Notes: a model not told the origin generated them from the sequence alone. DNA of 64,000 bases from an uncultured Gammaproteobacteria bacterium (GCA_964599455.1 CAZREA010000001.1:7687-71686); one strand, 5' to 3'; shown: positions 3,101 through 55,824, numbered from the stretch's first letter. Numbers and translations are program-made.

Positions 3101-3322
3101 AGACACAGGTTTACACAGATTAAAAGTAATGCAGACAGATGCAAGATGAGCGCCTGTCTATATCGAGGATAACAAGGACTTCGAAACGAAAAGAGCGATA
3201 ACGGAGATGTTCGGATAAACAGACGCTTTGTGCGTCTGTTTGGTTTATACTAATGGAGAAGAGCGAAAGGTAAGTCTTGTAATCTGTCTGTACCTTCTCG
3301 ATCTGTGTAAATCTGTTCCCTT
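3101..3322. repeat. Intergenic structured element bounded by a 16-nt inverted pair ACAGGTTTACACAGAT (3105-3120) / ATCTGTGTAAATCTGT (3301-3316), with an internal 10-bp perfect hairpin (AAACAGACGC-TTTGTG-GCGTCTGTTT, about 3221-3246)
   Basis: Direct sequence comparison; the same 16-mer recurs at 21047 and 55809. Confidence 0.55.
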
Positions 3323-4987
3323 ATGTTTTCCGAACTCTTTCTCGAAATCGCCGCCGTGATCATGACTGCGGGCGTGCTCTCCATTGTTGCGTACGTCTTT
3401 CGGCAGCCGCTCGTGATCGCCTACATGATTACCGGCATTATTGTTGGCCCGGCTGCGTTGGCGCTTACAACATCGACCGATGTCTTTGAGACACTTTCGC
3501 ACGTAGGTGTGGCATTTTTGTTATTTATCGTGGGATTGAATGTAAATTGGCGCAATATTCGTGACGTTGGTTTGGTGTCGTTATTGTCGGGTATTGCCCA
3601 GATTTTTATTACGTCAGCGGCAGGGTGGGGTATTGCGACGCTTTTAGGATTTGATACCTGGACCAGTATTTTTCTCGGCATTTCGTTTTCCTTTTCCTCG
3701 ACGATCATCATCGTCAAAATGTTGTCGGATAAAGAGGATATCGAGCGATTATATGGGCGTATTGCTGTTGGTGCCCTTATCGTTCAGGATTTGGTCGCGA
3801 TGGTGATTTTGTTGTTTTTATCGACGTATGCGAACGGTGGATCGTTTACGGTGTTGTTTACCGACTCACTCCTTAAGGCGATTGCGGTGATCGTCGTTTT
3901 ATGGTTTTTAGCAAAGTTTGCTATTCCACCGGTATTTCGTTTTGCTGCGCGTAATCAAGAGCTTCTTTTTTTGCTTGCAATCGCGTGGTGCTTTGCCGTT
4001 GCGGGAGGATTGCAGCTATTGGGATTTGGTGTAGAGATTGGGGCCTTGATGGCAGGTATCGCGCTTGCAGGCACCGGCTTTCAGCATGAGATTGAAGCGA
4101 AAGTGCGTTTCTTGCGGGACTTTTTCCTCATCATTTTCTTTATTGTGTTAGGAACGCATTTAGTTGCTGATGATATTGGGTTACTCATTCAACAAGGTTT
4201 GGCATTCTCCGCCTTTGTGCTTATTGGCAATCCGATCATCATGTTTGTGATTATGCGCTTGCTCGGCTATCACCCGCGCACCGGTTTTTTGTCGGGCACA
4301 ACGGTGGCGCAGATTAGCGAATTCTCCTTTATCTTACTTGCAAGTGGTGTTGCGGCCGGTTTGGTTATGCCCCAAGCCATGCCATTGGCAACATTTGTGG
4401 GTTTGGCGACGATCACGGCTTCAACGTATCTTATTTCGTACAATGAACGTATTTTTGAATATCTGTCACGTTATCTCCCATTTTTGCATTCCGATACTCC
4501 CGAACGAGAATTTGCGAGCGAAGCCGCACCGTCCATCGTCCTTCTTGGCTATGATCGCATGGGACAAGAGGTTTTGCCGATGATTCAACATATTGCTAAG
4601 CATTATGTGATTATGGATTTTAATCCGGCAATTGTTGAGGAATTATCTCAGCATGGTTTGCCGGTGATGTATGGCGATGCAGGAAGTGAGGATGCGTTGA
4701 AACTGGCACGGCTTGAAAAAACGAAAATGGTGATTTCAACGATTCCGGACATGGAGGTGAATGCCGATATTATGGATTACATCCGTGCTCGTGGGGCCAA
4801 ACCGGTAGTTATCCTCACCGTGAAGTCATCAGAAGACGCGGCGCGGTGTTATGCTTTAGGGGCAACATTTGTGATTGTGCCGTCGATTTTAGGTGGTGCA
4901 CATTTCGCGCAACTTTTAAAGAAAGCAAAAATTCTTAAACGCGGCTGGACAGCGGTAGCGAAGGAGTATCACGCTGCAGAAAAGTAA
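3323..4987 (+). CDS. CPA2-family monovalent cation:proton antiporter (KefB/KefC-like) with C-terminal RCK/TrkA-N NAD-binding regulatory domain
   Basis: About 12 TM helices followed by a Rossmann-like IVLLGYDRMGQEV...DAGSEDAL motif typical of the TrkA-N domain. Confidence 0.85.
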   Translation: MFSELFLEIAAVIMTAGVLSIVAYVFRQPLVIAYMITGIIVGPAALALTTSTDVFETLSHVGVAFLLFIVGLNVNWRNIRDVGLVSLLSGIAQIFITSAAGWGIATLLGFDTWTSIFLGISFSFSSTIIIVKMLSDKEDIERLYGRIAVGALIVQDLVAMVILLFLSTYANGGSFTVLFTDSLLKAIAVIVVLWFLAKFAIPPVFRFAARNQELLFLLAIAWCFAVAGGLQLLGFGVEIGALMAGIALAGTGFQHEIEAKVRFLRDFFLIIFFIVLGTHLVADDIGLLIQQGLAFSAFVLIGNPIIMFVIMRLLGYHPRTGFLSGTTVAQISEFSFILLASGVAAGLVMPQAMPLATFVGLATITASTYLISYNERIFEYLSRYLPFLHSDTPEREFASEAAPSIVLLGYDRMGQEVLPMIQHIAKHYVIMDFNPAIVEELSQHGLPVMYGDAGSEDALKLARLEKTKMVISTIPDMEVNADIMDYIRARGAKPVVILTVKSSEDAARCYALGATFVIVPSILGGAHFAQLLKKAKILKRGWTAVAKEYHAAEK

Positions 4988-4988
4988 T

Positions 4989-5459
4989 ATGGTAAATTTT
5001 CATAGAGATAGTGGTCCAGATTCTCGTTGGACTTCGGGGAGAGCATCTCCAGAAAGAGGTAAACAAATGGGGAATGATGTTGAGGGCGATGCGGGTGTTG
5101 AGGATGCACCTGTGGTTGAATCTGTTGCTGCCGAGTCTGAGGTCGATCAAAAATTTGCTAAAGCCATTGCTCAATTAAAGACGTCATTTGATGTTCAAGA
5201 ACGTGAAGCTCCTGTGGACGGCTCTCCGTATGATCCTCTTCAACTAACAAGGAGAGGAAGAACGAAGGTGGAAGGAATGGGAATACAAGTTTCCGATTTG
5301 CAGAATTATGTTTTGCGCAAGCGTGAAGGAAGAACAAAGGAAGACATGCGTAAAGATCTTGCCCGTCGACAAGAACAGGAGGCTGCAAATCAGGCTGCCC
5401 TCGTTCGTTCTGATGCTGCGCGTCGTCTAGCTGATCAAGTTCGGAGAATTGCTGGTTAA
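4989..5459 (+). CDS. Hypothetical charged protein (acidic N-terminus, Arg/Glu-rich C-terminus)
   Basis: ORF track only; fills gap between antiporter and hrcA promoter. Confidence 0.3.
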   Translation: MVNFHRDSGPDSRWTSGRASPERGKQMGNDVEGDAGVEDAPVVESVAAESEVDQKFAKAIAQLKTSFDVQEREAPVDGSPYDPLQLTRRGRTKVEGMGIQVSDLQNYVLRKREGRTKEDMRKDLARRQEQEAANQAALVRSDAARRLADQVRRIAG

Positions 5460-5480
5460 TTTGTGATGTAGAGAATTCCC

Positions 5481-5520
5481 TTGACACCCCGAGTTAGCAG
5501 TCTATACTTATGACTGCTAA
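5481..5520 (+). promoter_or_regulatory. Heat-shock promoter with CIRCE operator: -35 TTGACA (5481-5486), -10 TATACT (5503-5508), CIRCE inverted repeat TTAGCAGTC-N9-GACTGCTAA (5494-5520) overlapping the -10
   Basis: Match to CIRCE consensus TTAGCACTC-N9-GAGTGCTAA; position directly upstream of hrcA-grpE-dnaK. Confidence 0.85.
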
Positions 5521-5528
5521 CTCTTTTT

Positions 5529-6272
5529 TTGGAAAGCCTTGTGCTTGACCAACGATTGGCTCAACTCCTGAAGCTTATTGTCGAGCGCTACGTGAAAACC
5601 GCGCAGCCAGTAAGCTCCAAAGAACTGTGCGACACCTATGGTCTCACGGTATCTTCGGCGACCATTCGTAACCACATGGCCGAGCTTGAGGCACAGGGAT
5701 ATATCACCCAGCCGCACACTTCAGCTGGACGAATCCCAACCGAACAAGCCTATCGCTACTATATTACGCACTTTGCCGAGACCGAACGTCATCGTCCGGC
5801 TATGAATGTCACGATCACCATTAAACGCGTTGTGCGTGCGCCGTCTTGGGAAGAGCGTTTGCATGCACTTGCACTCGAAGTTGCAGAAACCTCGGGTGAA
5901 GCGGTGATGATCGCGACGGCTCGACCGTGGAGTGCGACAGTGGGGATTGGCAACTTGCTGCGTAAGCCGGACTTTCGTAGCGAGAATGCGATCATGTCTT
6001 TGGCCGGAGCATTGGAACGATTTGATGGTGCGCTGCGTAATCTGTTGCAGGTTGCCAACGATGATGTCAAAGTCGTGCTCGGTGTTGAGAATCCGCTTGG
6101 GCCCGATCTTGCCTCTGTCGTCGTCCGTCATCGTTTGCCCGACGGCACACAAGGTGCGATGTCCATCGTCGGCCCCATGCGTATGGACTATCCGCGCAAC
6201 ATGGCGATTCTTTCACGCGCAAAAGAGATTATTGAAAAGAAGGGAAGTGAAGGTATTTCGTATAGAACATAA
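5529..6272 (+). CDS. hrcA: Heat-inducible transcription repressor HrcA (short form, TTG start)
   Basis: N-terminal winged-helix LTxRQxxIL...YxxxGxPVxSxxL-like motif; operon context with CIRCE, grpE and dnaK. Confidence 0.85.
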   Translation: MESLVLDQRLAQLLKLIVERYVKTAQPVSSKELCDTYGLTVSSATIRNHMAELEAQGYITQPHTSAGRIPTEQAYRYYITHFAETERHRPAMNVTITIKRVVRAPSWEERLHALALEVAETSGEAVMIATARPWSATVGIGNLLRKPDFRSENAIMSLAGALERFDGALRNLLQVANDDVKVVLGVENPLGPDLASVVVRHRLPDGTQGAMSIVGPMRMDYPRNMAILSRAKEIIEKKGSEGISYRT

Positions 6273-6275
6273 AAT

Positions 6276-6812
6276 ATGACTGACGAACCACTACAACCTC
6301 AACAAGACCCACAACCAGAATCACCGACTGCTACTCAACCCGACGAGTTAACGCAGCTCAAAGCCAAATGCGACGAGTATCTTTCCGGCTGGAAACGCGC
6401 GCTCGCTGACTACGAGAATGTCGCTAAGCAGCAAGCGCAAATGCGCGATGAAGATCGTCGTCGTGTGCGTGCGAATCTCGCCGAAGACTTGCTTGGTGTG
6501 GTCGACAACTTTGGATATGTCACCAAACACATTCCTGATGTCTCTGGCTGCAGCGAAGAATTCCAAAAGAAATTCACCTCTTGGATCTCCGGCATCCAGC
6601 ACATCGATCGACAATTCATGGAAGTACTGAAATCACTCGGCGTTGAACCGATTGAGTCTCTCGGAAAACCCTTTGACGCTCGACTCCATGACGCAGCCGG
6701 AGCAAAGAAGGTCGAGGGAACTCAAGAGGGAATAGTGATTGAAGAATTGGTGAGAGGATGGAAGATTGGCGACGTGGTGTTGCGACCGAGTAGGGTGATT
6801 GTGAGTGAGTGA
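6276..6812 (+). CDS. grpE: Nucleotide exchange factor GrpE
   Basis: Conserved GrpE core (ENxxKRxxRE-like, long helix then beta-domain); position between hrcA and dnaK. Confidence 0.9.
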   Translation: MTDEPLQPQQDPQPESPTATQPDELTQLKAKCDEYLSGWKRALADYENVAKQQAQMRDEDRRRVRANLAEDLLGVVDNFGYVTKHIPDVSGCSEEFQKKFTSWISGIQHIDRQFMEVLKSLGVEPIESLGKPFDARLHDAAGAKKVEGTQEGIVIEELVRGWKIGDVVLRPSRVIVSE

Positions 6813-7148
6813 TCGATTTATTTTATGGTAGAAAGAAAAAAGAAAATTGATTTTTTCATCGGAGCTTTTGTCATGATATTGATAATTCTCAATCACAACA
6901 CCTTTGATTTTAGCAAACAGGTTGGTACTCGTGAGGTCGATTGTGAAGATCCTTGTCTTCGTCTTTCTACAGAGGAGAGATCGGATGGAACTCGATATTA
7001 TGAACAACCGATTTATGACTTCAGTATCATTCCCCGCATTACCTTTGATCGCTTAAGAGCTGAGAGATTTTTCTGGGACATCATTATTATCAGCTTTGCC
7101 TTCTTGATACGTTATCTCTTTCATTCAAGTGAAAATAAAAATAAATAA

Positions 7149-9098
<1,950 letters not shown>

Positions 9099-9109
9099 TG
9101 AGGTAGTTT

Positions 9110-10155: not shown

Positions 10156-10160
10156 TAAAT

Positions 10161-10493: not shown

Positions 10494-10500
10494 ACTTCCT

Positions 10501-10872: not shown

Positions 10873-10894
10873 TGGCCTTTTACTCCAACTCTCT

Positions 10895-11098: not shown

Positions 11099-11101
11099 TG
11101 T

Positions 11102-18451: not shown

Positions 18452-21040
18452 GTGGCCAAACAAACTTCCTCTTTTGATCCCGCGGCAGTTGCCTACAGCG
18501 AGAGCTTTGCCTATGACCAGGTTTCTCCGCTCATTCCTTTTCTTTTTTTGACGATTATTGTTTTGATAATCGGTTGGACGGCCTTATTTTTTATTCGCAA
18601 GCGTGCAGCCGAGGCCCGACGATTGGGTGGCGGCGATGATGCGCCGGTCACGCTGCGCATCATGTTACCAAAATTTTCAAACGAAGAAGATGCACGTGCG
18701 CGTGAAGTCCAGCAAACAACAAAAGAAAAAATTGGTGTTGCCGAAACACTGTTTGCGGCGTTTGGGGGCTTGAAGCCTGCACACGGACTCAAGCATTGGT
18801 TATTGGCACATGAAGATGTGTTTGCACTTGAACTTGTCGCGCATCAAAAATTGGTTACGTTTTACGCAACGGTTGCAAAAAAACATCAACACTTTTTTGA
18901 ACAACAAGTGCACGCCCAGTGGAGTAGCGCGTATATTGAAGAAGTGGATGATTACAATATCTTTTCTCCCAAGGGCGTGATTGTGGCGGGGTATATTATT
19001 CAAAAACGGGAAAGTGTTTTACCGATTAAAACATATAAGGATTTAGAGGCCGATCCATTAAATGCGCTCACCAATGCGTTGTCGCAAGTTGCTGATGGTG
19101 ATGGCGTGGTGGTGCAGTATATTTTGCGACCAACCCATGGTCATTGGCGTGAACTTGGTCAAAGAATTGTGCGCAACATGCATGCCGGCTTAAGTTTTTC
19201 GCAAGCAAAAAAAGGGAAACCAAGCCGAGGACTTTTAGAATCAAAAGAGGATTTTGACAAACGTGAGGCAAAACTTCGTGAACATAAACTTTCGGCGCTC
19301 GAAAATAAGATGCTTGAAGGCATTGAACAGAAAATTTCCAAAGCGGGTCTTGAAGCCAATATTCGGGTGGTTGCTTCGGCGCAAACTGCCGAGGCCGCAC
19401 AGGCGTATTTGGGGAATGTGTTGCAGGCATTTGGCCAATACAGTATTTACGAATATGGGAATAGTTTTGATAAACATATCCCTTCGTCAAAAAAGGAGAT
19501 TCTCAATAACTTTATTTTCCGTCAATTTAGCAAGAATCATCGCCTTATTTTAAATACCGAAGAGCTTGCGAGCTTGTGGCACCTGCCGCTGCCGACAACC
19601 GAAACACCGAATATTGAGTGGCTGCTCGCCAAAACTGCACCTCCACCAACAAATACGCCGTCAACCGGCCTTCATCTTGGTTTTAATGCCTATCGTGGCA
19701 AGCGAACCGAAGTCTTCATGAAGGAAGCTGATCGTCGTCGGCACATGTACATCATTGGTAAGACCGGTTCGGGTAAATCGGAGTTTATTAAAAATTTGGT
19801 GGCACAAGATATTAAAGAAGGCAAAGGTGTCGGTGTTATTGATCCGCACGGTGATTTGGCTGATGGTATTTTGGAACTTATTCCCAAAGAGCGTGTTGAT
19901 GATGTTGTCTATTTCAATCCATCTGACATGGAATATCCGATGGGGTTGAACATGCTCGAGGTTCCGCTTTCGGAAGAAGATGCCAAGCTTGATCCTGAAG
20001 AGCAACGCAAAATTCTTGCCAATCAACGCGATTTTGCCGTGCAAGAAATGATCAATATTTTCTACATGTTGTTCCCACCGGAAATGATTGGTCCGATGTT
20101 CGAGCACAACATGCGCAACTACATGCTTACGTTGATGGCTGATCCAGAGAATCCTGGTACGATTGTGGAAATTCCGCGCATGATTGCCGATGAAAAATTC
20201 CAAAAGCAATGGGTTTCCAAGGTTACCGATCCGGTGGTCAAATCCTTCTGGGAAGATGAAATGGCCAAAACATCCGACTATCACAAGAGTGAAATGATGG
20301 GCTACTTGGTTTCGAAAGTCGGTCGTTTTGTAGAAAACGAAATGATGCGCAATATCATTGGTCAAACCAAGTCTGCCTTTGATTTCCGTAAAATCATGGA
20401 CGAGAAAAAGATTTTGTTGGTCAATCTTTCCAAGGGTCAAACCGGTGAAGTAAACGCATCGCTCTTAGGTTTGATTATCGTTGCCAAGTTACAGATGGCG
20501 GCTTTCCGTCGTGCCGATATTCCTGAAGAAAAGCGTCAGGACTTCTATCTGTATATCGACGAGTTCCAAAACTTCATCACCCCCTCAATCGCAACGATTC
20601 TTTCTGAGGCACGTAAATATCGTCTCGACCTTATCATGGCTCACCAGTACATGGGTCAGTTGGTCAAAGATGGCAAGAGCGAAATTCGTGATGCCGTGCT
20701 TGGTAACGTGGGTAGTACGTTTGTGGCACGTGTGGGTCCTGAAGATGTGGAAGTGCTCGGTAAAATTTACGAACCCGTGTTTTCGAAATTCGATTTGATG
20801 AACACTGATAAATTTACATGGAACGTCAAGCTGATTATCGACAACGCCCAAGAAAAGCCATTTACCATGAAGGCCTACCCGCCAATCAAGGGAAATGCGC
20901 GTGTGGCCGAACTCTTAAAAGACATTTCGCGTTTGCAATACGGTCGTCCACGTGAAGAGGTTGAGAAAGATATCCTTGAACGCGCTGGTTTGAATAAGAA
21001 AAAGGAGATCGCCATGCCCGCACCTCCGCCGGTGTTTTAA
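18452..21040 (+). CDS. Membrane-anchored P-loop NTPase of the VirD4/TraG/TraD coupling-protein or HerA/DUF87-like class (862 aa)
   Basis: N-terminal TM helix; Walker A IIGKTGSGKSEF followed by IDPHGDLADGI; Walker B YIDEFQNF; EARKYRLDLIMAHQ arginine-finger/Q motif typical of the FtsK-HerA-VirD4 superfamily. Confidence 0.7.
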   Translation: MAKQTSSFDPAAVAYSESFAYDQVSPLIPFLFLTIIVLIIGWTALFFIRKRAAEARRLGGGDDAPVTLRIMLPKFSNEEDARAREVQQTTKEKIGVAETLFAAFGGLKPAHGLKHWLLAHEDVFALELVAHQKLVTFYATVAKKHQHFFEQQVHAQWSSAYIEEVDDYNIFSPKGVIVAGYIIQKRESVLPIKTYKDLEADPLNALTNALSQVADGDGVVVQYILRPTHGHWRELGQRIVRNMHAGLSFSQAKKGKPSRGLLESKEDFDKREAKLREHKLSALENKMLEGIEQKISKAGLEANIRVVASAQTAEAAQAYLGNVLQAFGQYSIYEYGNSFDKHIPSSKKEILNNFIFRQFSKNHRLILNTEELASLWHLPLPTTETPNIEWLLAKTAPPPTNTPSTGLHLGFNAYRGKRTEVFMKEADRRRHMYIIGKTGSGKSEFIKNLVAQDIKEGKGVGVIDPHGDLADGILELIPKERVDDVVYFNPSDMEYPMGLNMLEVPLSEEDAKLDPEEQRKILANQRDFAVQEMINIFYMLFPPEMIGPMFEHNMRNYMLTLMADPENPGTIVEIPRMIADEKFQKQWVSKVTDPVVKSFWEDEMAKTSDYHKSEMMGYLVSKVGRFVENEMMRNIIGQTKSAFDFRKIMDEKKILLVNLSKGQTGEVNASLLGLIIVAKLQMAAFRRADIPEEKRQDFYLYIDEFQNFITPSIATILSEARKYRLDLIMAHQYMGQLVKDGKSEIRDAVLGNVGSTFVARVGPEDVEVLGKIYEPVFSKFDLMNTDKFTWNVKLIIDNAQEKPFTMKAYPPIKGNARVAELLKDISRLQYGRPREEVEKDILERAGLNKKKEIAMPAPPPVF

Positions 21041-21046
21041 GGAAAT

Positions 21047-21168
21047 ACAGATTTACACAGATCGAAAAGATTAAGACAGATGACATACTGTGGAAGAGGG
21101 CCTGTAAAGCAAGATGTTTCTCTGCTACCTTTTGATCCGTCGTATTTTATTGATTTGTGTAAATCTGT
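21047..21168. repeat. Intergenic element bounded by ACAGATTTACACAGAT (21047-21062) and its inverse ATTTGTGTAAATCTGT (21153-21168). Fills the whole gap between the ATPase stop and the dnaX start.
   Basis: Direct sequence comparison with the 3105/3301 pair and the 55809 copy. Confidence 0.55.
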
Positions 21169-21173
21169 GTCCT

Positions 21174-22841
21174 ATGTCCTCCGACGTCCTTTTCCGCAAA
21201 TACCGACCCCAGCAATTCTCCGATGTTGCCGAACAGGAGCATGTCGTACGCACGATCCAAAATCAATTAGCGCAAGACATGATTGCGCAAGTGTATTTGT
21301 TTTCTGGACCGCGCGGAGTAGGAAAGACGACGATCGCGCGGTTGCTGGCAAAAGCATTGAATTGCGAAGGGCGACAAAAAGGACAGAGTGAGCCTTGTGG
21401 GACATGTGCATCGTGTACGGATTTTGCGTTTGGGCGAATGATGGATGTGATTGAAATTGATGCGGCATCGCAGACCGGCGTTGATGCAGTGCGAGAAAAC
21501 ATTATTGAAGGTGTTCGCTTTAGCCCGACACGCGGTAAATACAAGATTTTCATCATTGATGAAGTGCACATGCTGTCGACGGCATCCTTTAATGCACTTT
21601 TAAAAACGCTCGAAGAACCGCCAAAGCATGCGATTTTTATTTTAGCTACCACAGAACTGCATAAAATCCCTGCGACCGTTATTTCTCGCTGTCAGCGTTT
21701 TGTGTTTAAGCATATTCCGGCAGCGGCCATGATTGAGCGTTTAAAAACGTTGGCGATACGTGAAAAAAGGGAAGTTGATGATCACGTGCTTGCACAAATT
21801 GCTCGTTTGTCTGAGGGTTGTTTGCGTGATGCGGAGAGTTTGCTCGGGCAAGTGTTTGCGATTACTGATGAGCGGGTGACCCTCGGCAATGCATCATTGG
21901 TTTTGCCGGTCACGCATGCAACGGCGGTTGCCGACATGGTTACGCATCTTGCAAGCGGCGATGTTTCCACTGCGATCAACGTGTTGAATACGACGGTTGC
22001 CAGCGGTGCATCGGTGAAGCATTTGCATGATGAACTTTTAGAATATGCACGAGCCGTTTTGCTACAAACATTAGGGGGACTTGATCACGAGCGTTTTGAT
22101 GGCGAGTCGTTGGAGCGAATCAAGACAACGGCAACGCAGTTGCAATTGGCCGGAGCAACACGATTACTTGATGAGCTCTTGTCAGCTCGTGGTCGCAGTA
22201 CGCCATCTTTGTTTCCGCAAGTCGCATTAGAGATTGCGTTTGTGAAGGCTAGTGTCATCCCGACGCCAGGAGGGATCTCGAACTCGGCGAATATTTCTCT
22301 TCAGCAACGAACAGACTCCGACGCCAGGAGGAGCCTAGAAAATCCTCTTAAGAAACAAGAAAATCAACCAGGAGAAATAGATATTCCTCAGCAAAATTCT
22401 CAACCATTCCAAGAACCTCCGAAGGAATCTGCTAGATCCTTCCAGCCTGCCCTGAGTGAACGCGAAGGGTCAGGGTCTGATGCTCCTACCCCTTCGTCCC
22501 CTTCTGAATCCTCCACACCCCTCTCTTCCTCTGACCTTCGCGACAAATGGGGTCGCTGTTTGGAAAAAGCCAAGGCATCTGCAGGTCCGGGTTTTGGACT
22601 GGTGCTCGGCGTGGCCGAGTTTGTTGAAGTACAGGATGGCCGTGTGGTTGTTGTTTCGTTTCCTTACCAAATGCATCTCGATAAAATGAAAGATGCCAAG
22701 AATGCGCGTTTACTGCGTGATGCTATTGCGGAAATTGCCATGATGCCCGACATCGAGCTTTCATGTATTCTTGGCAAAAGAGCCGCTGCTGAAGATGAAG
22801 TAGGAACATTACTGGCTGAGTTTGGCGGGAGTGTGGTGTAA
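21174..22841 (+). CDS. dnaX: DNA polymerase III subunit gamma/tau. Carries an in-frame low-complexity insertion derived from the palindromic repeat family.
   Basis: GPRGVGKTT Walker A, clamp-loader motifs, Zn module CGTCASC; the provided ORF start at 21114 trimmed to the ATG at 21174 (MSSDVLFRKYRP). Confidence 0.9.
   Translation: MSSDVLFRKYRPQQFSDVAEQEHVVRTIQNQLAQDMIAQVYLFSGPRGVGKTTIARLLAKALNCEGRQKGQSEPCGTCASCTDFAFGRMMDVIEIDAASQTGVDAVRENIIEGVRFSPTRGKYKIFIIDEVHMLSTASFNALLKTLEEPPKHAIFILATTELHKIPATVISRCQRFVFKHIPAAAMIERLKTLAIREKREVDDHVLAQIARLSEGCLRDAESLLGQVFAITDERVTLGNASLVLPVTHATAVADMVTHLASGDVSTAINVLNTTVASGASVKHLHDELLEYARAVLLQTLGGLDHERFDGESLERIKTTATQLQLAGATRLLDELLSARGRSTPSLFPQVALEIAFVKASVIPTPGGISNSANISLQQRTDSDARRSLENPLKKQENQPGEIDIPQQNSQPFQEPPKESARSFQPALSEREGSGSDAPTPSSPSESSTPLSSSDLRDKWGRCLEKAKASAGPGFGLVLGVAEFVEVQDGRVVVVSFPYQMHLDKMKDAKNARLLRDAIAEIAMMPDIELSCILGKRAAAEDEVGTLLAEFGGSVV
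22259..22480. repeat. Copy or copies of the GACGCCAGGAGG palindromic element embedded in-frame in the dnaX linker. It is translated as a Pro/Ser/Gln-rich segment including SDARRSLENP.
   Basis: Left cores CCGACGCCAGGAGGGATCT (22261) and CAGACTCCGACGCCAGGAGGAGCCTAGAAAATCCTC (22312), right-arm remnant CTGCTAGATCCTTCC (22428). Confidence 0.65.
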
Positions 22842-29365: not shown

Positions 29366-29437
29366 GTTCCGAGACATGGATTCGAACCATGATTGACTGA
29401 TTCAGAGTCAGTTGTCCTGCCATTAGACGATCTCGGA
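29364..29437 (-). tRNA. tRNA-Gln (anticodon CTG), U1-A72 pair, CCA encoded
   Basis: Hand fold of the reverse complement: acceptor TCCGAGA/TCTCGGA, anticodon stem ACTGA/TCAGT with loop CTCTGAA, T-arm CATGG TTCGAAT CCATG. Confidence 0.75.
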
Positions 29438-29589
29438 GTTTTTGCGATCCGTCCTATCCGTTGCACTTTTTTACTATCCGTTCTCATCCGTTTTTTACCC
29501 CATCCACTATGCCAGACTTGGGGGGTCTTGCCAAGGTTTTTCGTCTTTGTATAAAATAAGAGAGCACTTATTCTTTACTTAAATGTGCT

Positions 29590-32504: not shown

Positions 32505-33114
32505 GTGTTTTTCCCAGTTGTTCTCCGACCCACGTATAAAAATTAACAACTGATGGTGCTTCCAAAGAGAAAAGCGTTTTTTTAGGTTCATCGGTTGGGG
32601 GGAGCGTATCGATTTCCCGTGCTTCATTCGCTGCAATGACGATATCTCCTCGTTCCGGTTGGTAAACGATGACGGTGCCTTCCAAAACGGAAATTTGGAT
32701 TTTATCAAGCCATGGGTAATGAACGAGCGTTGCCAGACCATCAACAACAATCGTCGTTACTCTACTTGTGAAGGTTGCATCGCCCGATACCACGATGCGT
32801 CCATCAAGAAAAGTAAATGTTTCTTGCTCTTTACGACCATCGTCGAATAACAGAGAAGTATTCTGGTCAAGAAGAATAATCGTGCCGTCGATGCGATACG
32901 AGGCAAACTCGTTCGTAGTGGTGGTCACGGTTTCGCCGCGAATGTAGCTCCGCATGCCGTCATGAAGTGAGGAGTTGATGGGTTCGAGATTTTGATGAGA
33001 AGGGCCTCCGAGGCGGTTAGCGAGTAAAAGAATAAGAGCAATAGCGACAATAATGACAATAAGCCCGATGGTTCTTGCGGATAACTTTGTTGCTGAAAAG
33101 AGGGGTGATTGCAT
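32470..33114 (-). CDS. Hypothetical N-terminally anchored exported protein (beta-rich)
   Basis: ORF track; single N-terminal TM helix. Confidence 0.4.
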   Translation of the reverse strand: MQSPLFSATKLSARTIGLIVIIVAIALILLLANRLGGPSHQNLEPINSSLHDGMRSYIRGETVTTTTNEFASYRIDGTIILLDQNTSLLFDDGRKEQETFTFLDGRIVVSGDATFTSRVTTIVVDGLATLVHYPWLDKIQISVLEGTVIVYQPERGDIVIAANEAREIDTLPPTDEPKKTLFSLEAPSVVNFYTWVGEQLGKTLIPQTPDGAGE

Positions 33115-33130
33115 ACCGTGTGGTCAAGAT

Positions 33131-34000
33131 ATGAGAAGTTTCCCCAATCGTATCACAGCTTTTCGAAGAAAGCTTCTCGCTTGGTTTCGTATTGTCGGCA
33201 GAGATTTGCCTTGGCGACAAACGCATGATCCTTACGCGATCGTGGTTTCTGAAATTATGTTGCAACAAACCCAGGTCGATCGCGTCATTCCCAAATACCA
33301 GGCCTGGCTTCAGACGTTTCCTACTTGGGAAATATTAGCAAAAGCATCGACCACTGATGTATTAAAGGCGTGGAGCGGACTTGGATATAATCGTCGTGCG
33401 TTGATGCTGCAACGTCTGGCACAAACGATTGTTGTGCGTGGGAGTTTTCCGCAGGAGATCGATGACATGATCAAACTTCCCGGTATCGGACCCTACACCG
33501 CACATGCCGTTGCTGCCTTTGCTTTTCAAAAGAAAGGTGCAGCGCCGGTCGATACCAATATTGATCGCGTGCTGCGTCGGGTTTTCGGTAGACGTGACGC
33601 ACGTAAAAAAGAGATTGCCGAGCTCGCGCAAACGGTTGCGCCCAAAGATGTGTGGTCGTGGAATCATGCGCTGATGGATTTGGGTGCAACCAAGTGCATG
33701 GCACGAAATCCAAAATGCGAAACCTGCCCTCTTAAAGATATCTGTTTGTCATATCCCTGCATCGGAGATGATATTGTGAAAGTGAAGCAGAAGAAGTTTG
33801 AGGGTTCTGATCGGATGTATCGAGGGAAAATAGTAAAGATGTTGCAGGGAAGGGAGTTTTTACCGGTCCGGCAATTGGGAAGGCTGTTGGATTTGACGGA
33901 TAAAGAACGGATGAAACGGATTCTTGATGGGCTTGTAAAGGATGGATTTATTATTGTTGATGCACAGGGTTCTCTTCGGATTGCGGATAAGAATAGGTAG
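33131..34000 (+). CDS. HhH-GPD base-excision DNA glycosylase with 4Fe-4S cluster loop (MutY/Nth family; A/G-specific adenine glycosylase-like) plus C-terminal winged-helix-like extension
   Basis: LPGIGPYTA HhH, catalytic Asp context, CxxxxxxCxxCxxxxxC cluster; start trimmed to the ATG at 33131. Confidence 0.8.
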   Translation: MRSFPNRITAFRRKLLAWFRIVGRDLPWRQTHDPYAIVVSEIMLQQTQVDRVIPKYQAWLQTFPTWEILAKASTTDVLKAWSGLGYNRRALMLQRLAQTIVVRGSFPQEIDDMIKLPGIGPYTAHAVAAFAFQKKGAAPVDTNIDRVLRRVFGRRDARKKEIAELAQTVAPKDVWSWNHALMDLGATKCMARNPKCETCPLKDICLSYPCIGDDIVKVKQKKFEGSDRMYRGKIVKMLQGREFLPVRQLGRLLDLTDKERMKRILDGLVKDGFIIVDAQGSLRIADKNR

Positions 34001-34152
34001 AATGAAAAAGATCCTGACGCTAGGAAGGATCTATCATGACCATAAGCGATTGTTGCTCCGAAGGAATTTTTCTAGACCCTTCCTCTTCGCTTCACTCAGA
34101 GTCAGGGTTTTCCTCATCCGTTGTATCCGTCTTTAATCCGTCCTATCAGTTT

Positions 34153-34422: not shown

Positions 34423-34496
34423 AGACCTCGACGCCAGGAGAGGCCTAGAAAATTCCTGCGAAAGAATTTGCTAGATCCTTCCTGACGTCAGGATCT
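34423..34496. repeat. Palindromic MITE/REP-like element (GACGCCAGGAGAGGCCTAG ... CTAGATCCTTCCTGACGTCAGGATC) followed by a T-run; acts as or replaces a terminator
   Basis: Direct comparison with family copies. A partial hairpin of the same family lies at 34003-34030 (AGATCCTGACGCTAGGAAGGATCT). Confidence 0.7.
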
Positions 34497-34501
34497 TTTT
34501 C

Positions 34502-35392
34502 ATGCGATCTCTATCCATTCTTATTACAGGCTTTCTTTTACTGGGCGCTGGCTGCACCCCTTCTTTTGGTGCGACATTTTTTTCTGCAGAGGATTTAGGA
34601 TTTGCCGAAAATACCATGATCGTTCTTGAACAAACCTATCTTGGCATCAATCATCCCCTTTCTGATCAGGGAAAAAAGACGGTTACCATCTCTTCTTGGA
34701 ATCCTTCTGTGAGCGCGACGTTGTCTTGGATTCAGCAAGATCAACAAGAAACTGCTGAATCTCGGGCGGCGCGTGAAGCGGCTTTGCAGGCGCCAGTAGG
34801 ATCGGAGACAACAGTGCCTGATCCTGTTTATGAAACAGTGACAACCCAAGGAACGATTACGACTGATGCACTCGATGATGCTTCAGCTATCCTGCTGCCA
34901 AAAGATTGGACTGCAGGAGATCAGAATCTTTCTGGGCAAGGCAATGGCGTATTGTGGCTATCAAAGAAACAGTATGAAGAGTTGATTCAAACGCGATCAA
35001 CGCACCTTACCCTTGGCGCCTTTGATGCGGCACTGCAAAAGATTCATGACCTTTCCACAACCGCGCAACATGCACTGGCGGCATTACAAGGTACAGAAGC
35101 AAGTCAGCAAAACGATGCTTTAGGTGATGCAACCAAAATAACTGCCGACGCTGATTGGGGAACGATGACGCTGAGGCTTAATGATCAGCAAGTAAAAGTA
35201 AAAACCGTGACTGCGCAAAATGCGTTTGCTGCATATGTCATTTTGGCAAATCCTAACAATCCTCTTATTCTTAAAGTTACGCCCAAACCTTGGGCCCTTG
35301 GTATCGGTGTTTTTTCTGGCTCAGCATTCTGGCAACAGTTGGCTGGCTATGTGGTGACGCAGATTACGGTTTCTCCTTCTTCTCAACCATGA
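34502..35392 (+). CDS. Putative lipoprotein (signal peptide with LLGAGC lipobox), function unknown
   Basis: N-terminal signal/lipobox; ORF track. Confidence 0.5.
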   Translation: MRSLSILITGFLLLGAGCTPSFGATFFSAEDLGFAENTMIVLEQTYLGINHPLSDQGKKTVTISSWNPSVSATLSWIQQDQQETAESRAAREAALQAPVGSETTVPDPVYETVTTQGTITTDALDDASAILLPKDWTAGDQNLSGQGNGVLWLSKKQYEELIQTRSTHLTLGAFDAALQKIHDLSTTAQHALAALQGTEASQQNDALGDATKITADADWGTMTLRLNDQQVKVKTVTAQNAFAAYVILANPNNPLILKVTPKPWALGIGVFSGSAFWQQLAGYVVTQITVSPSSQP

Positions 35393-48708: not shown

Positions 48709-48713
48709 GTACC

Positions 48714-49828: not shown

Positions 49829-49927
49829 AGCCTTTGGCTCGTATCGTGACCGTTCTGCCTTTTGCCGGACGGTCATGTTCCTTTTTTAGGGAAATTTCGG
49901 TATTCTAGCTCTCGACTCTTTTCTATG

Positions 49928-51805: not shown

Positions 51806-51879
51806 TTTGACGGTTTTTCTTTAATCCTTTATTATTTTACCGCTTTCAGTTGAAGCTGAAACGCGTCCAAAACGCCATT

Positions 51880-52095
51880 ATGGCGGAAAAGCAATTTCTC
51901 GAAATGCGTGGTACTGTCCTTGAGGCACTGCCCGCTGGCGCGTTCCGCGTCAAATTGGAAAATGAGATGGTGATTACGGCATATCTTGCCGGCAAGCTCC
52001 GTCAGAATCGTATCCGGGTGATGCCCGGCGACGAGGTCAAGTGTGAGATTAGTCCATACGATCTCACCAAGGCACGAATCACGTTCCGGTTTTGA
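51880..52095 (+). CDS. infA: Translation initiation factor IF-1
   Basis: S1-like OB fold, [31 protein letters not shown]; start trimmed to MAEKQ. Confidence 0.85.
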
Positions 52096-52182
52096 ACCTT
52101 ACCCGTTCATTACCGAGCGGCATCTCGCGCTTGTGCAAAATCATCCGGTTTTTTGTGCCTGGGTGATTTTGTATAAAAAGGA

Positions 52183-52258
52183 CAGACCCCGACGCCAGGA
52201 GGGGCCTAGCAGACCCTTTTTGAAAGAATCCTTTAGATCCTTCCTGGCGTCAGGATCT
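52183..52258. repeat. Full-length palindromic MITE/REP-like element (CAGACCCCGACGCCAGGAGGGGCCTAG ... AGATCCTTCCTGGCGTCAGGATCTG) in the infA-rpmJ spacer
   Basis: Direct comparison with family copies. Confidence 0.75.
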
Positions 52259-52272
52259 GATCTATTCACTTT

Positions 52273-52386
52273 ATGAAAGTTCGCTCATCGGTTAAGAAAA
52301 TTTGTCGCGATTGCCAGGTGATTCGTCGCTTTGGTCGCGTTATGGTTACGTGCAAGACTCCTAAACATAAACAGCGTCAAGGTTAA
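52273..52386 (+). CDS. rpmJ: 50S ribosomal protein L36
   Basis: Manual translation [37 protein letters not shown] (Cys Zn-ribbon, classic L36); below the ORF-track length cutoff. Confidence 0.85.
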
Positions 52387-52389
52387 TCT

Positions 52390-52776
52390 ATGGCTCGTAT
52401 TGCTGGAGTTACTCTCCCTTCGCAAAAGCGCATCATTGTTGCGCTGCAATATATTTATGGTGTGGGTATTACTCGTGCCAAACAAGTGCTTGCAAAAGCG
52501 AAGGTCGACGAAGAGATTCGCGTGAAAGATCTCACTGCGGATCAAGAAAATGCTATTCGTACGATCGTTGAAAAAGAATATCGTGTCGAAGGTGATTTGC
52601 GACGCGATGTGCTTTCAAATGTGAAGCGTTTAAAAGATATCGGTTCTTATCGAGGTTCTCGTCATACCAAGGGTTTGCCGGTACGTGGTCAGCGTACCAA
52701 GAGCAATTCTCGTACGGTACGCGGAAACGTTCGTAAGACTGCGGGTAGCGGTCGCCGTATGTTGACTAAGACCTAA
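52390..52776 (+). CDS. rpsM: 30S ribosomal protein S13
   Basis: MARIAGV...GVGITRA signature. Confidence 0.95.
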
Positions 52777-52780
52777 TGCT

Positions 52781-53272
52781 ATGACTGAAGAAACACTTCT
52801 CAACGACCAGCCGACGACCGCCGCCGTAACCACGGATGATGCTTCGTCTTCTGATAAAACAGCCAAGGTAGTCAAAAAGTCGGATAAAATCATGACTGCC
52901 AAGGGTAAAAAGCGCACGCTCAAACAGGTGCCTCAGGGTCGTGCGTACATCCATGCCAGCTATAACAACACCATCTTGTCGCTTACCGATCCCCATGGCA
53001 ATTTACTTGCGTGGGCATCGGCCGGAAACTGTGGTTTTAAAGGACCAAAGAAAGCTACTCCGTATGCTGCCAGTGTGGTGGTGAAAAAAGCTGCAGAAAA
53101 GGCTGCACAATACGGTTTAAAAGATATTCATGTTTTTGTGACAGGAATCGGCAATGGTCGCGATGGTGCGGTTCGTGCCTTGAATGCTAATGGCTTCAAT
53201 GTACTCACACTTAAAGATACCACTCCGGTTGCACATAACGGTTGCCGACCACGTCGCGCTCGCCGCGTGTAA
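52781..53272 (+). CDS. rpsK: 30S ribosomal protein S11 (with N-terminal extension; an alternative start about 52889 is possible)
   Basis: HIHASYNNTILSLTD...G core. Confidence 0.9.
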   Translation: MTEETLLNDQPTTAAVTTDDASSSDKTAKVVKKSDKIMTAKGKKRTLKQVPQGRAYIHASYNNTILSLTDPHGNLLAWASAGNCGFKGPKKATPYAASVVVKKAAEKAAQYGLKDIHVFVTGIGNGRDGAVRALNANGFNVLTLKDTTPVAHNGCRPRRARRV

Positions 53273-53291
53273 TTTACGGCTTTGATTCTCT

Positions 53292-53912
53292 ATGGGTAAA
53301 ACATTACAACCACTTGGAAAACTCAGCCGTCGCGAAGGCGTACCGCTGTCGGCTTCTACTAGTGTCTTAAAGGTCATGCAGCGTCGTGCCTACGCTCCTG
53401 GTCAACACGGCAGTCCAACTGCACGTGCACCAAAGGTGTCGGTTTACGGCAAACAGTTGCGTGAAAAGCAGAAAGCCAAACGTTTGTATGGCATTTTAGA
53501 ACGTCAATTTCGTAACTATTTCACCAAAGCTGCGGCAACACAAGGCAACACCGGTGAAAATCTTTGTCGTCTTTTGGAAACTCGCTTAGACAATGTTGTC
53601 TATCGTTTGGGCTTTGCCAAAACCCGTCCACAGGCTCGTCAAATGGTTAGCCATTGCATGTTCATGGTGAATGGAAAGACGGTGAATATTCCGTCGTATC
53701 ATGTACGGGTAGGCGATACTCTGGAAATCCGTTCAAACAAAAAAGAAAAGAAAGTTTTTTCTGATCTGGGTGATCGGTTAAAGGTTCATACGGTTCCTGG
53801 TTGGCTTCATCGGGAGGAGATGAAGGGAAAGGTAGTCAGCACTCCTGCTGGTGAAGATTTGAAGGAAGTATTCGATCCCACACTTATCGTCGAATTTTAT
53901 TCCATGCGTTAA
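53292..53912 (+). CDS. rpsD: 30S ribosomal protein S4
   Basis: S4 N-domain plus S4 RNA-binding domain (LETRLDNVVYRLGFA). Confidence 0.95.
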   Translation: MGKTLQPLGKLSRREGVPLSASTSVLKVMQRRAYAPGQHGSPTARAPKVSVYGKQLREKQKAKRLYGILERQFRNYFTKAAATQGNTGENLCRLLETRLDNVVYRLGFAKTRPQARQMVSHCMFMVNGKTVNIPSYHVRVGDTLEIRSNKKEKKVFSDLGDRLKVHTVPGWLHREEMKGKVVSTPAGEDLKEVFDPTLIVEFYSMR

Positions 53913-53936
53913 TTCGCATTATCTTAATCTTCTTTT

Positions 53937-54689
53937 ATGGAGACTATCTTTCTTCCATCAAAAATGCACTTCGCTACTGGTGCTCAGGAACACGAGTCAA
54001 TTCTGACCGTAGAACCTTTGCATCATGGCTACGGAACAACCATTGGTAATGCATTGCGTCGTGTGCTGCTTTCTTCTCTTCCTGGTGCTGCAGTTACAGC
54101 CATGAAGATTAAGGGTGTACAGCACGAGTTCCAGGCAGTATCGGGCATTAAGGAAGATGTGCTCGACATCATGCTCAATTTGAAAAAATTGCGTCTCAAA
54201 GTACATGCCGATGAAGCAGTTACGTTGAAACTTTCTGCCAAAGGCGCGGGTGTAGTAACGGCGAAAGCTTTTGAGAAAAATGCTGATGTAGAAATCATGA
54301 ATCCTGATTTGGAGTTAGCGACGATCACTGCCGCTAGCGGAACATTGGAAATGGAAATTGTTGTTTCTCGTGGTCGTGGCTACTTGCCTACCGAAGAGCG
54401 CGAAGAACCAACTACCGAAATCGGCATGATTGCTATTGATGCCATGTTCAGCCCTGTACGTGATGTCAGCCTTAAAGTTGAAAATACCCGTGTGGGCGAT
54501 ATCACGAACTACGATAAGCTCATCATGACGATTGTGACCGATGGCACCGTTACTCCGCAGGAAGCTGTTGAACAAGGAACAAAAATTCTTCTCAATCACT
54601 TCACGTGGATTCAGGGTCAACTTAATCACGCCTCACTTACTGAACAAATTGCTCGCGCAGCCGAGGAAGCGCCGAAGCTTGATGAATAA
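53937..54689 (+). CDS. rpoA: DNA-directed RNA polymerase subunit alpha, short form (N-terminal assembly domain; canonical C-terminal DNA-binding domain apparently absent)
   Basis: alpha-NTD motifs (GYGTTIGNALRRVLLSS); 250 aa versus about 330 in typical bacteria. Confidence 0.9.
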   Translation: METIFLPSKMHFATGAQEHESILTVEPLHHGYGTTIGNALRRVLLSSLPGAAVTAMKIKGVQHEFQAVSGIKEDVLDIMLNLKKLRLKVHADEAVTLKLSAKGAGVVTAKAFEKNADVEIMNPDLELATITAASGTLEMEIVVSRGRGYLPTEEREEPTTEIGMIAIDAMFSPVRDVSLKVENTRVGDITNYDKLIMTIVTDGTVTPQEAVEQGTKILLNHFTWIQGQLNHASLTEQIARAAEEAPKLDE

Positions 54690-54692
54690 TGT

Positions 54693-55043
54693 ATGCGTCA
54701 TCGTAATAAAAATAAGATTCTTAGCCGCAAACGACCTGCTCGCAAGGCATTGATTCGCGATTTGGTGACGGCTGCGATTGTATACGAGCGCATTGAAACG
54801 CCGCTTGTACGCGCCAAGGTTGCTCGTCAGCAATTGGAAAAGTTGATCACGGTTGCAAAGAATCCGTCGCTTGCTGCGCGTCGTCGCTTGTTGGCGTTTT
54901 TTACAACCGAACAACCGGTGAATAAATTATTGGAAGTAATCGGCCCTCGCTATCAAGAGCGCAAAGGCGGATATACTCGTTTGATTAAAATGGGTACCCG
55001 TCAAGGCGATGCTGCTGAAACGGCGATCATTGAACTTGTCTAG
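54693..55043 (+). CDS. rplQ: 50S ribosomal protein L17
   Basis: MRHRNKNKILSRKRPARKAL start typical of L17. Confidence 0.95.
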   Translation: MRHRNKNKILSRKRPARKALIRDLVTAAIVYERIETPLVRAKVARQQLEKLITVAKNPSLAARRRLLAFFTTEQPVNKLLEVIGPRYQERKGGYTRLIKMGTRQGDAAETAIIELV

Positions 55044-55046
55044 TTT

Positions 55047-55406
55047 ATGGCTTATACGATTAATCGAAAAACCTACGAAGTCGATGCGACGGGAAAAATT
55101 CTCGGCCGCTTGGCAAGTGATATTGCCAAACATTTGATAGGGAAGACCAACGCGAACTATCTTCCGCATGTCGATATGGGTGATGACGTAAAAGTGGCAA
55201 ATGTTGCCGCTATGCGTGTTACCGGCAAGAAATACGAGCAAAAGAAGTATTTTAAGCATTCCGGTCATCCGGGTGGTATTAAAGAAACCACCATGCGCAA
55301 AATGTGGGAGAAAGATCCCGCAAGTGTGTTGCGTGCTGCCGTTTCTCGCATGCTTCCTAAGAATAAACATCGTGATGCTCGTTTGCAGCGTCTCATTATT
55401 TCGTAA
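55047..55406 (+). CDS. rplM: 50S ribosomal protein L13
   Basis: L13 family conservation (IDA.G..LGRLAS.IA). Confidence 0.95.
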   Translation: MAYTINRKTYEVDATGKILGRLASDIAKHLIGKTNANYLPHVDMGDDVKVANVAAMRVTGKKYEQKKYFKHSGHPGGIKETTMRKMWEKDPASVLRAAVSRMLPKNKHRDARLQRLIIS

Positions 55407-55408
55407 GT

Positions 55409-55804
55409 ATGGCACAACAGTATTATCATGCCGTCGGCCGTCGTAAGACCGCTGTCGCACAAGCTCGCCTTTCTTTGGGTGGTAGTGGTAAAATCACGGT
55501 TAATGATCGTGCATTTGAAGATTATTTCACAACCGAAACACTTCGTCTTACGGTTTTGCGACCGTTGACCGAAGCCGGTAAAACTGAAGGTGCCGACGTC
55601 ACCCTGAAGGTGCTTGGTGGTGGGTTGATTGGTCAGGCTGATGCCGCACGTTTGGCTATTGCTCGTGCACTCTTAAAGACCGATGAAAACCTTAAGCCTG
55701 CTTTGAAAGCTCCTGGACTTCTTACGCGTGATCCTCGTAAGAAAGAACGCAAGAAGCCTGGTAAGCGTGGTGCACGTCGTTCACCGCAGTGGCGCAAGCG
55801 TTAA
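55409..55804 (+). CDS. rpsI: 30S ribosomal protein S9
   Basis: C-terminal GKRGARRSPQWRKR typical of S9. Confidence 0.95.
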   Translation: MAQQYYHAVGRRKTAVAQARLSLGGSGKITVNDRAFEDYFTTETLRLTVLRPLTEAGKTEGADVTLKVLGGGLIGQADAARLAIARALLKTDENLKPALKAPGLLTRDPRKKERKKPGKRGARRSPQWRKR

Positions 55805-55808
55805 AACT

Positions 55809-55824
55809 ACAGATTTACACAGAT
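55809..55824 (+). repeat. Third copy of the ACAGATTTACACAGAT motif, 5 nt after the rpsI stop (no inverted partner found)
   Basis: Exact 16/16 match to 21047-21062. Confidence 0.5.

Follow-up and report, generated by a model that had tools for sequence, protein, structure and literature searches.

Phased 7-mer arrays between bacterial genes and their probable tie to the GxxExxY nuclease family

Five loci in a 64-kb stretch of DNA from an uncultured Gammaproteobacteria bacterium (GCA_964599455.1 CAZREA010000001.1:7687-71686; the window, with positions counted from its first letter) carry short arrays of the directly repeated units ACAGAT or ACGGAT. These loci are probably gene-less copies, full or half, of a dispersed palindromic repeat family that is tied to the GxxExxY nuclease, and not an operator, a reading to which we give a probability of about 0.6. 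An earlier, sequence-only reading of the window had singled out a 16-nt motif, ACAGATTTACACAGAT, with inverted partners at three loci, and this repetition is genuine. With up to two mismatches allowed, the 64-kb window holds five matches, at 3105, 21047 and 55809 on the plus strand and at 3301 and 21153 on the minus strand, those at 3105 and 21153 having one mismatch each and the other three none. Shuffled sequences yield 0.04 matches on expectation and none of 100 shuffles reached five, which rules out a chance origin.

Two intergenic gaps, 3101-3322 and 21041-21173, are each filled by an inverted pair of arms, and the third locus is a solo arm located 3' of rpsI. The stop-to-start filling described earlier is therefore real, although the distances differ somewhat: the left arms begin 4-6 nt after a TAA stop codon (3098-3100, 21038-21040 and 55802-55804) instead of 5-7 nt, and the right arms end 5-6 nt before an ATG (3323 and 21174) instead of 6-7 nt. 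Likewise, the length of 122 bp given for the second unit (21047-21168) stands, whereas the first (3105-3316) measures 212 bp and not 215 bp. The arm itself is an array of about 36 nt with the form ACAGAT-N4-ACAGAT-N13/14-ACAGAT, in which the long gap holds a degenerate unit (AAGAT or ACGGAT); the internal AGACAGATG sub-motif noted before does exist, but it is the last unit of this array and not a separate feature. With relaxed patterns two more loci of the ACGGAT variant were found, one at 29447-29491 and the other at 33896-33921 with 34116-34141, which brings the array loci in the window to five, with inverted partner arms at loci 1, 2 and 5 and solo arms at loci 3 and 4. The window arms contain 3-4 ACAGAT or ACGGAT units, spaced 9-11 or 19-20 nt.

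Distribution of the array family

Given the 22 fixed bases of the array pattern ACAGATTTACACAGAT-N11-15-ACAGAT, about one chance match in 596 Gb is expected by our own estimate. In the genome collection the pattern was identified at 113 loci at least, with about 13 phyla represented among the matches listed, namely Patescibacteria, Bacteroidota, Chloroflexota, WOR-3, Acidobacteriota, Verrucomicrobiota and Planctomycetota, together with Cyanobacteriota, Bacillota, Spirochaetota, Pseudomonadota, 'Deltaproteobacteria' and Armatimonadota. The pattern is nearly absent from the plasmid (4 records) and phage (2 records) collections, and no match was found in viral contigs. At the listed loci the repeated unit is the 7-mer CACAGAT, the C at position -1 being present in 86% of units; in the window arms this leading C is often substituted (TACAGAT, GACAGAT). 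Of 562 spacings between neighbouring units, 307 are exactly 10 nt, and a second mode is seen at 19-21 nt. The general form of the 7-mer is C-R-C-R-R-A-K, and a spacing of about 10 bp places the units on one face of the DNA helix.

A typical element is composed of a run of 3-6 units followed, 20-150 nt on, by an inverted run, which together form an imperfect palindrome of 70-220 nt. At the listed loci 16% of array bases fall in called open reading frames (ORFs), compared with 82% coding overall, and the palindromes are mostly situated between co-directional genes (33 of 41), often no more than 15 nt from both neighbours, with some lying between convergent genes. In one Patescibacterium (L024), the S10 operon (L3, L4, L23, L2, S19, L22, S3, L16) has six junctions that are filled by near-identical palindromes, one per junction, each extending from a few nucleotides past a stop codon to some 20 nt upstream of the following ATG; filling of the gap from stop to start is a trait of the family. 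Elsewhere, a tmRNA gene has palindromes on both sides (L001), and a single 23S rRNA gene of another Patescibacterium (L019) has two copies, one forming a 161-nt insertion in domain I, at a hairpin tip, and the other located in the terminal loop of helix 45, the classical site of intervening sequences (IVS). When copies from different lineages are aligned, the 7-mers alone are common to them, as the loop and the outer extension of the inverted repeat are lineage-specific. At two further loci (L091 3472-3772 and L110 4940-5240), units of about 45 nt that consist of three 7-mers are repeated in tandem six to seven times, forming an array of 300 nt in a single orientation.

GxxExxY genes enclosed by arrays

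At six of the 113 listed loci, all of which were selected by the motif, the arrays directly flank one ORF of 120-155 aa on both sides. Three of these are simple inverted pairs; the remaining three have one array on one side of the ORF and a full palindrome on the other. The six loci come from three phyla (Verrucomicrobiota, Bacteroidota and a Staskawiczbacterium), and the enclosed ORFs encode GxxExxY proteins (TIGR04256; PF13366, PDDEXK_3), with E-values between 1e-29 and 1e-43 for the two that were scanned. PF13366/TIGR04256 is a large family with multiple horizontal transfers whose function is listed as 'Unknown' (PMC3424549).

The same association was approached from the protein side in a sample of 80 GxxExxY genes collected from metagenomes by protein similarity, of which 79 were analysed. 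Most of these genes have the same architecture built from variant 7-mers (CACAGAG, CACAAAG, CGCAAAG, CACGAAG, CGCAGAT). In the usual layout of such a cassette, 3-4 direct 7-mers stand about 10 nt apart upstream of the gene and their reverse complement begins 2-10 nt past its stop codon, the inverted repeat often being lengthened to TTAAC-CAC...GTG-GTTAA. Under the strict pattern C[AG]C[AG][AG]A[TG], 22 of the 79 genes have three or more units on both sides, and the only other ORF to pass this enclosure test in 1.12 Mb of fetched DNA is a ribosomal-protein gene between two palindromes. The 1.12 Mb contain 340 arrays of this pattern, compared with one after shuffling. At least three inverted 7-mers are common to the two 130-nt flanks of 59 of 69 GxxExxY genes, a situation found for only 20 of 80 control ORFs.

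The 7-mers in the arms vary among cassettes (CACAGAG, CACAAAG, CGCAAAG, CACGAAG, CACAGAT), and they do so in step on the two sides. In 16 cassettes a 7-mer recurs three or more times on each side, and 12 of these have the identical 7-mer inverted on the opposite side, with five 7-mer types represented; the units of the two arms thus covary. The sequence-only reading had named a lack of further copies and of covariation as grounds for abandoning its motif; many copies are present in the genome collection, and the arms covary between cassettes. In addition, the 7-mer types group on the protein dendrogram irrespective of GC content and track the clades of the GxxExxY protein. Patescibacterial GxxExxY genes, fetched by protein identity, have CACGAAT, CACAAAT or ACGGAT units. 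In two different Patescibacteria (L096 and L198), a GxxExxY cassette is found at the same position, with a TraC-like gene downstream and a Band_7 gene on the opposite side; the two proteins are about 65% identical and the arm 7-mers are CACAGAT in one and CACGAAT/CACAAAT in the other, so this cassette appears to have been inherited in place while its 7-mers drifted.

The catalytic D...E-x-K residues of the GxxExxY proteins are invariant. The predicted structure is confident (pLDDT 86.5), a fold search with it returned only weak matches to Cas4, RecE and lambda exonuclease, and no real match was found among solved structures by sequence. In open-access text, no paper or curated family was found that deals with the 7-mer arrays or with their link to GxxExxY. 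Carriers that are in culture are Segatella copri, Bacteroides finegoldii, Flavobacterium sp. 7A and Syntrophomonas palmitatica.

As the only gene consistently found inside the arms, the GxxExxY nuclease is the natural candidate for the protein that binds them, and the 7-mer arrays may well be its binding sites. The 10-bp phase, together with the repetition of one 7-mer within each arm, would suit a protein that binds cooperatively along one face of the DNA duplex. It is plausible that the nuclease, acting in trans, forms or maintains the gene-less copies, in the manner in which REP-associated tyrosine transposases (RAYT) relate to repetitive extragenic palindromes (REP) and to REPIN sequences. 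Extended to all of its settings, this would make the family a bacteria-wide counterpart of the REPIN-RAYT system, in which GxxExxY recognizes 7-mer arrays that co-evolve with the protein and makes or keeps gene-less hairpins in operon spacers, in the flanks of tmRNA and tRNA genes and at IVS sites of 23S rRNA. We offer this broader scheme tentatively, considering it possible but with the odds somewhat against it.

Array copies in the window

At locus 1, the left arm (3105-3141, plus strand; ACAGGT-N4-ACAGAT-N14-ACAGAT) starts 4 nt past the stop codon of an MscS-like gene (2384-3100), and the right arm (3282-3316, minus strand), an inverted array, ends 6 nt from the ATG of a Kef-type antiporter gene (3323-4987). 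At locus 2, the left arm (21047-21082, plus strand; ACAGAT-N4-ACAGAT-(AAGAT)-ACAGAT) begins 6 nt past the stop codon of a DUF8128/VirD4-like gene (18452-21040), and the right arm (21135-21168, minus strand), with the units ACAGAT, ACAAAT and ACGGAT, ends 5 nt from the ATG of dnaX (21174). The solo arm of locus 3 (55809-55843, plus strand) is made up of ACAGAT, ACAGAT, ACGGAT and ACAGAT at spacings of 10, 10 and 9, starting 4 nt past the rpsI stop codon. Locus 4 (29447-29491, minus strand), an arm of the variant type with four ACGGAT units, lies immediately upstream of a minus-strand tRNA gene (29367-29437). At locus 5, the left arm (33896-33921, plus strand) has three ACGGAT units (spacing 11 and 10) and lies within the C-terminal tail of an EndoIII-like ORF (33053-34000), and the right arm (34116-34141, minus strand), made of three ATCCGT units, lies about 12 nt ahead of the position at which a thioredoxin-like gene probably starts (34153), within the extended N-terminus of the called ORF. 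The two arms of locus 5 pair in the minimum-energy fold, and both overlap ORF ends.

As neither the window nor the 9.5 kb beyond it contains a GxxExxY gene or remnant, the window copies represent the gene-less form of the family; having no nuclease gene beside them, they are either served in trans or relics. It is likely that they were inserted into short operon spacers. The window is assigned to a Patescibacterium, the homologues of its DnaX being patescibacterial. In a relative whose DnaX is 60% identical the order of a DUF8128 gene followed by dnaX is kept, with a spacer of 32 nt and no array. This short spacer fits the gain of about 120 bp by insertion in the lineage to which the window belongs, the relative being too distant to define the junctions. 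In the window, translation of dnaX is placed at 21174 (555 aa) and not at the in-frame ATG at 21114, as the N-terminus then fits the MP-DVLFRKYRPQ of the relative. The public DnaX call (575 aa) begins at the ATG inside the repeat (21114-21173), an annotation that was misled by the element.

Several points weigh against the reading of these copies as gene-less members of a dispersed repeat family tied to the nuclease. The absence of the gene just described is itself one of them: a six-frame profile search of the window gave a best E-value of 1.2, no GxxExxY match was detected in the 9.5 kb beyond it, and no remnant was detected inside locus 1. Exact AC[AG]GAT arrays accompany only 2 of the 80 GxxExxY genes that were selected by protein. 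Identical GxxExxY proteins are found in many samples at one conserved locus and not at many sites, and for this reason the gene does not behave as an active insertion sequence; PD-(D/E)XK nucleases are not known to carry out transposition alone. No copy was seen to be present in one strain and missing from a close one, and the sole empty site is that of the distant relative. No target-site duplication could be defined either, as there is no direct repeat around the window copies or around the aligned copies of four lineages. The TTAAC...GTTAA ends that many cassettes have could stem from a duplication of TTAA or simply continue the inverted repeat. Finally, the interior of locus 1 resembles an ordinary terminator with a -10 box, and its two arms need not be a single arrival.

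A different pairing of the arms was also considered, in which a composite mobile element or island of about 18 kb, carrying the VirD4-like gene, would be bounded by the arms at 3105 and 21168 and the nearby serine recombinase would belong to it. The arms at 3105 (plus strand) and 21153-21168 (minus strand) do bracket 18 kb in inverted orientation, a VirD4/TraG-like ATPase is encoded inside, and a large serine recombinase gene stands beside a tRNA gene just upstream. Each of these arms, however, has a far nearer partner (3301 and 21047, respectively) with which it forms a stable hairpin, and the relative without arrays keeps the order and strands of the ORFs across the right boundary (ORFs of about 586, 299 and 133 aa on the opposite strand, one of 160 aa, DUF8128 and dnaX), a correspondence between the window and the relative that was drawn by size, strand and order only. 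As the relative keeps the matching ORF order without arrays, the DUF8128 gene looks resident, and the composite transposon, which we judge highly improbable, was rejected on this conserved gene order.

Some neighbouring features of the window deserve mention in their own right. The large serine recombinase gene (window 601-2231; Resolvase, Recombinase and Zn-ribbon domains) ends at 2190, and its end overlaps the minus-strand tRNA gene at 2160-2231; this overlap may be the border of an integrated element. The EndoIII/Nth-like ORF at 33053-34000 continues for about 84 aa past its iron-sulfur motif (residue 231 of 315), and as this tail holds the ACGGAT arm at 33896-33921, the coding sequence may have absorbed a repeat arm. 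A second hairpin repeat, AAAAAGATCCTGACGCTAGGAAGGATCT, at 33998-34030 flanks the thioredoxin-like gene together with an inverted copy at 34474-34503; the two are unrelated to the 7-mer arrays, and each resembles a terminator hairpin. A public short-read contig of the same organism (L217, positions 1-136 corresponding to window 55708-55843) stops about 100 nt before the arm of locus 3, possibly an assembly break related to the repeat.

Transcript hairpins, promoters and translation starts

The earlier suggestion that the filled gaps are not random spacer, but a small unit bounded by inverted repeats and used at several loci, is upheld, and the complete units fold as one hairpin each. As RNA, the spacer of locus 1 (228 nt) forms a single hairpin of -78.9 kcal/mol with a z-score of -7.0, and that of locus 2 (133 nt) a single hairpin of -44.7 kcal/mol with a z-score of -6.0. 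Both close 1-7 nt from the downstream AUG. Their ends read ...GUUCCCUUAUG and ...GUGUCCUAUG and lack a U tract, and hence these hairpins do not qualify as intrinsic terminators. Terminator-like hairpins are present separately. The internal hairpin that had been reported for locus 1 exists (3216-3242, 11 pairs) and is of this kind, as it is followed by a T-rich tail (the whole spanning 3216-3245, plus strand) and by a TATACT box at 3247-3252, and an intrinsic-terminator hairpin with a T run at 55841-55884 (plus strand), directly 3' of the locus 3 arm, is the terminator of the host gene and lies outside the repeat. Insertion in operons or rRNA loops is probably tolerated because the transcript forms a hairpin, which in the window units has no U tract and draws the upstream stop towards the downstream start.

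These folds invite the alternative that the selected function is at the RNA level, the DNA repeat being secondary: a hairpin for processing or stability (an RNase III site, a 3'-end protector or a coupling bridge) would act in operons like the intervening sequences of 23S rRNA and like REP or Correia elements. The position of the hairpin closures next to the AUG and the missing U tract agree with such a role, as do the relatives found within the S10 operon, which is polycistronic, and at the tips of 23S rRNA hairpins, helix 45 among them, and the two arms stay complementary for every 7-mer type. Against it, what is kept is the sequence and not just the pairing, since one 7-mer is repeated 3-6 times per arm in a 10-nt phase that a stem does not need; the solo arms of loci 3 and 4 and of many listed loci cannot make a hairpin; and palindromes occur between convergent genes too. 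Nor does any Rfam family match at gathering or E-value thresholds. In the window only three tRNAs reach the gathering score, and six element-rich loci gave only sub-threshold matches to microRNA precursors, which reflect generic hairpins. An RNA-level function as the primary one is accordingly judged rather unlikely, although it may well coexist with the DNA-level repeat; the structured RNA of the earlier reading is possible as a consequence of a transcribed hairpin, and not as a known family. What the two arms conserve is a sequence, that of the phased 7-mers, and this speaks for recognition at the DNA level rather than for a covarying RNA fold.

Another possibility, also raised by the sequence-only reading, is that the flanking genes are under the control of a DNA-binding host protein, a regulator or a nucleoid protein, with the arrays as its operators. 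Direct repeats in a 10-bp phase are a common mark of arrays to which proteins bind, two right arms stand next to start codons, many genes of this genome probably having leaderless mRNAs, and the variant array of locus 4 is just upstream of a tRNA gene. However, the flanking genes are functionally unrelated. Copies follow stop codons or precede terminators, as does the solo arm of locus 3, which occupies a 3' region between rpsI and its intrinsic terminator and faces a convergent gene, and relatives are found between convergent genes, within the S10 operon, around a tmRNA gene and inside 23S rRNA. A scan for sigma-70-type sites found no promoter-like site on the plus strand in either the locus 1 or the locus 2 unit. 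One 7-mer is shared by about 13 phyla, which have few regulators in common, the arrays specifically enclose one family of nuclease genes, and the relative has no array at the dnaX site. Reuse as an operator at several promoters is thus not supported, and we consider it improbable.

The lack of a Shine-Dalgarno sequence before the downstream ATGs had been put forward as a peculiarity of the two units. It is a correct observation and a genome-wide trait: any Shine-Dalgarno-like motif is present at only 19 of the 70 ORFs of the window, so that its absence at the array loci is uninformative. Many window ORFs have instead a TATACT-like box 6-8 nt before the start codon (e.g. 17965, 40557, 43962 and 63566), which suggests that leaderless mRNAs are widespread. 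A promoter in the right arm that gives a leaderless mRNA was tried and rejected, as the -10-like GTAAAT ends 11 nt from the ATG, out of register with the TATACT boxes. Known sites were also compared with the motif by eye. ATTTACACA fits the DnaA box TTWTNCACA at 8 of 9 positions, and it was dismissed because the conserved part is CACAGAT and the spacer differs between copies; for the Pho box, the XerD arm of dif, the sigma-54 -24/-12 element and the extended -10 (TGTGTAAAT), the match relies on the variable spacer or misses essential bases.

Implications

If the wider scheme proposed above is true, the PF13366 nuclease family gets its first function, and at least some rRNA intervening sequences would have a common origin. 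A candidate DNA target that varies with the protein clade makes the orphan PF13366/TIGR04256 family accessible to assays of binding and cleavage. A repeat of this kind, spread across phyla, would explain a motif that can be taken in error for an operator or a riboswitch, and it connects ordinary intergenic hairpins to the intervening sequences of 23S rRNA in Patescibacteria. The toleration of hairpins of 70-140 nt at six S10-operon junctions bears on how translation starts without a Shine-Dalgarno sequence in small genomes.

Comparison with known systems

Arrays of short direct and inverted units at a fixed phase, the signature of cooperative binding to one DNA face, are also found in the heptads of the omega repressor (pSM19035), in ParR/parC and in plasmid iterons, which are operators of plasmid partition or replication with contiguous 7-bp or with 11-22-bp periods. 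The present arrays differ from them in being chromosomal, dispersed in many copies and nearly absent from the plasmid and phage collections.

The closest parallel is the REP/REPIN-RAYT system. REPs are imperfect palindromes of 20-40 bp with a GTAG or CGTC end tag, and the gene of the Y1 HUH RAYT is flanked by inverted REPs (PMC3733652). In both systems short dispersed intergenic palindromes are found, often as inverted doublets that fold as hairpins, and a gene of nuclease type, at a stable locus, is flanked by inverted repeats while gene-less repeats are numerous; the single conserved GxxExxY locus across samples is in keeping with this parallel. The gene here, on the other hand, encodes a PD-(D/E)XK nuclease (PF13366) and not a Y1 HUH tyrosine transposase, as the enclosed ORFs match PF13366/TIGR04256 only. 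The arms are phased direct arrays of a 7-mer and not self-palindromes, they have no GTAG/CGTC tag, and the 7-mer is common to several phyla, whereas REPs are lineage-specific. In one genome, a Y1_Tnp (IS200/RAYT-like) gene (L200 4991-5662) has its own hairpin, TTTGGAGGTTCAACCTCCAAA, on both sides, unrelated to the 7-mer arrays; a phased array of TATCAAC units (about 5760-5830) lies beside it, two genes away from a GxxExxY cassette.

Bacterial miniature inverted-repeat transposable elements (MITEs) and palindromic elements, such as Correia/NEMIS, the Rickettsia palindromic elements and ERIC, are likewise small, non-coding and multi-copy with terminal inverted repeats, and they too insert between operon genes and in RNA genes and are co-transcribed as hairpins. 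Measured against MITEs, the window has small (122 and 212 bp) non-coding units with inverted repeats and a total of five loci in 64 kb, and many copies are present in the genomes of relatives. The arrays differ in that no target-site duplication was found, no DDE transposase is the partner, the inverted repeats are periodic and the spread crosses phyla. A gene with the same arms, as expected of an autonomous partner, does exist, but it encodes a PD-(D/E)XK nuclease at one stable locus and no known transposase (function unknown in PMC3424549).

The intervening sequences of 23S rRNA (helices 9, 25 and 45), with or without a 23S_rRNA_IVP ORF, resemble the family in that the copies in the 23S rRNA gene of one Patescibacterium are at hairpin tips, one of them in helix 45, and in having terminal complementarity around a small ORF or around nothing. 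They differ in that the window copies lie between protein-coding or tRNA genes and not in rRNA, and in that the enclosed ORF is GxxExxY and not 23S_rRNA_IVP; no description of the classical intervening sequences as 7-mer arrays was found. In another of the fetched loci (L168 2368-2724), an ORF for a four-helix bundle resembling 23S_rRNA_IVP, identified by phmmer only (E-value of 1e-31), is enclosed by an inverted repeat of different short units of the AATGNT type, and small ORFs enclosed by hairpins may form a wider class. The array element, which lacks the features that define REP-RAYT and shares those of MITEs in part, works like a REPIN or a MITE and, in rRNA, like an intervening sequence.

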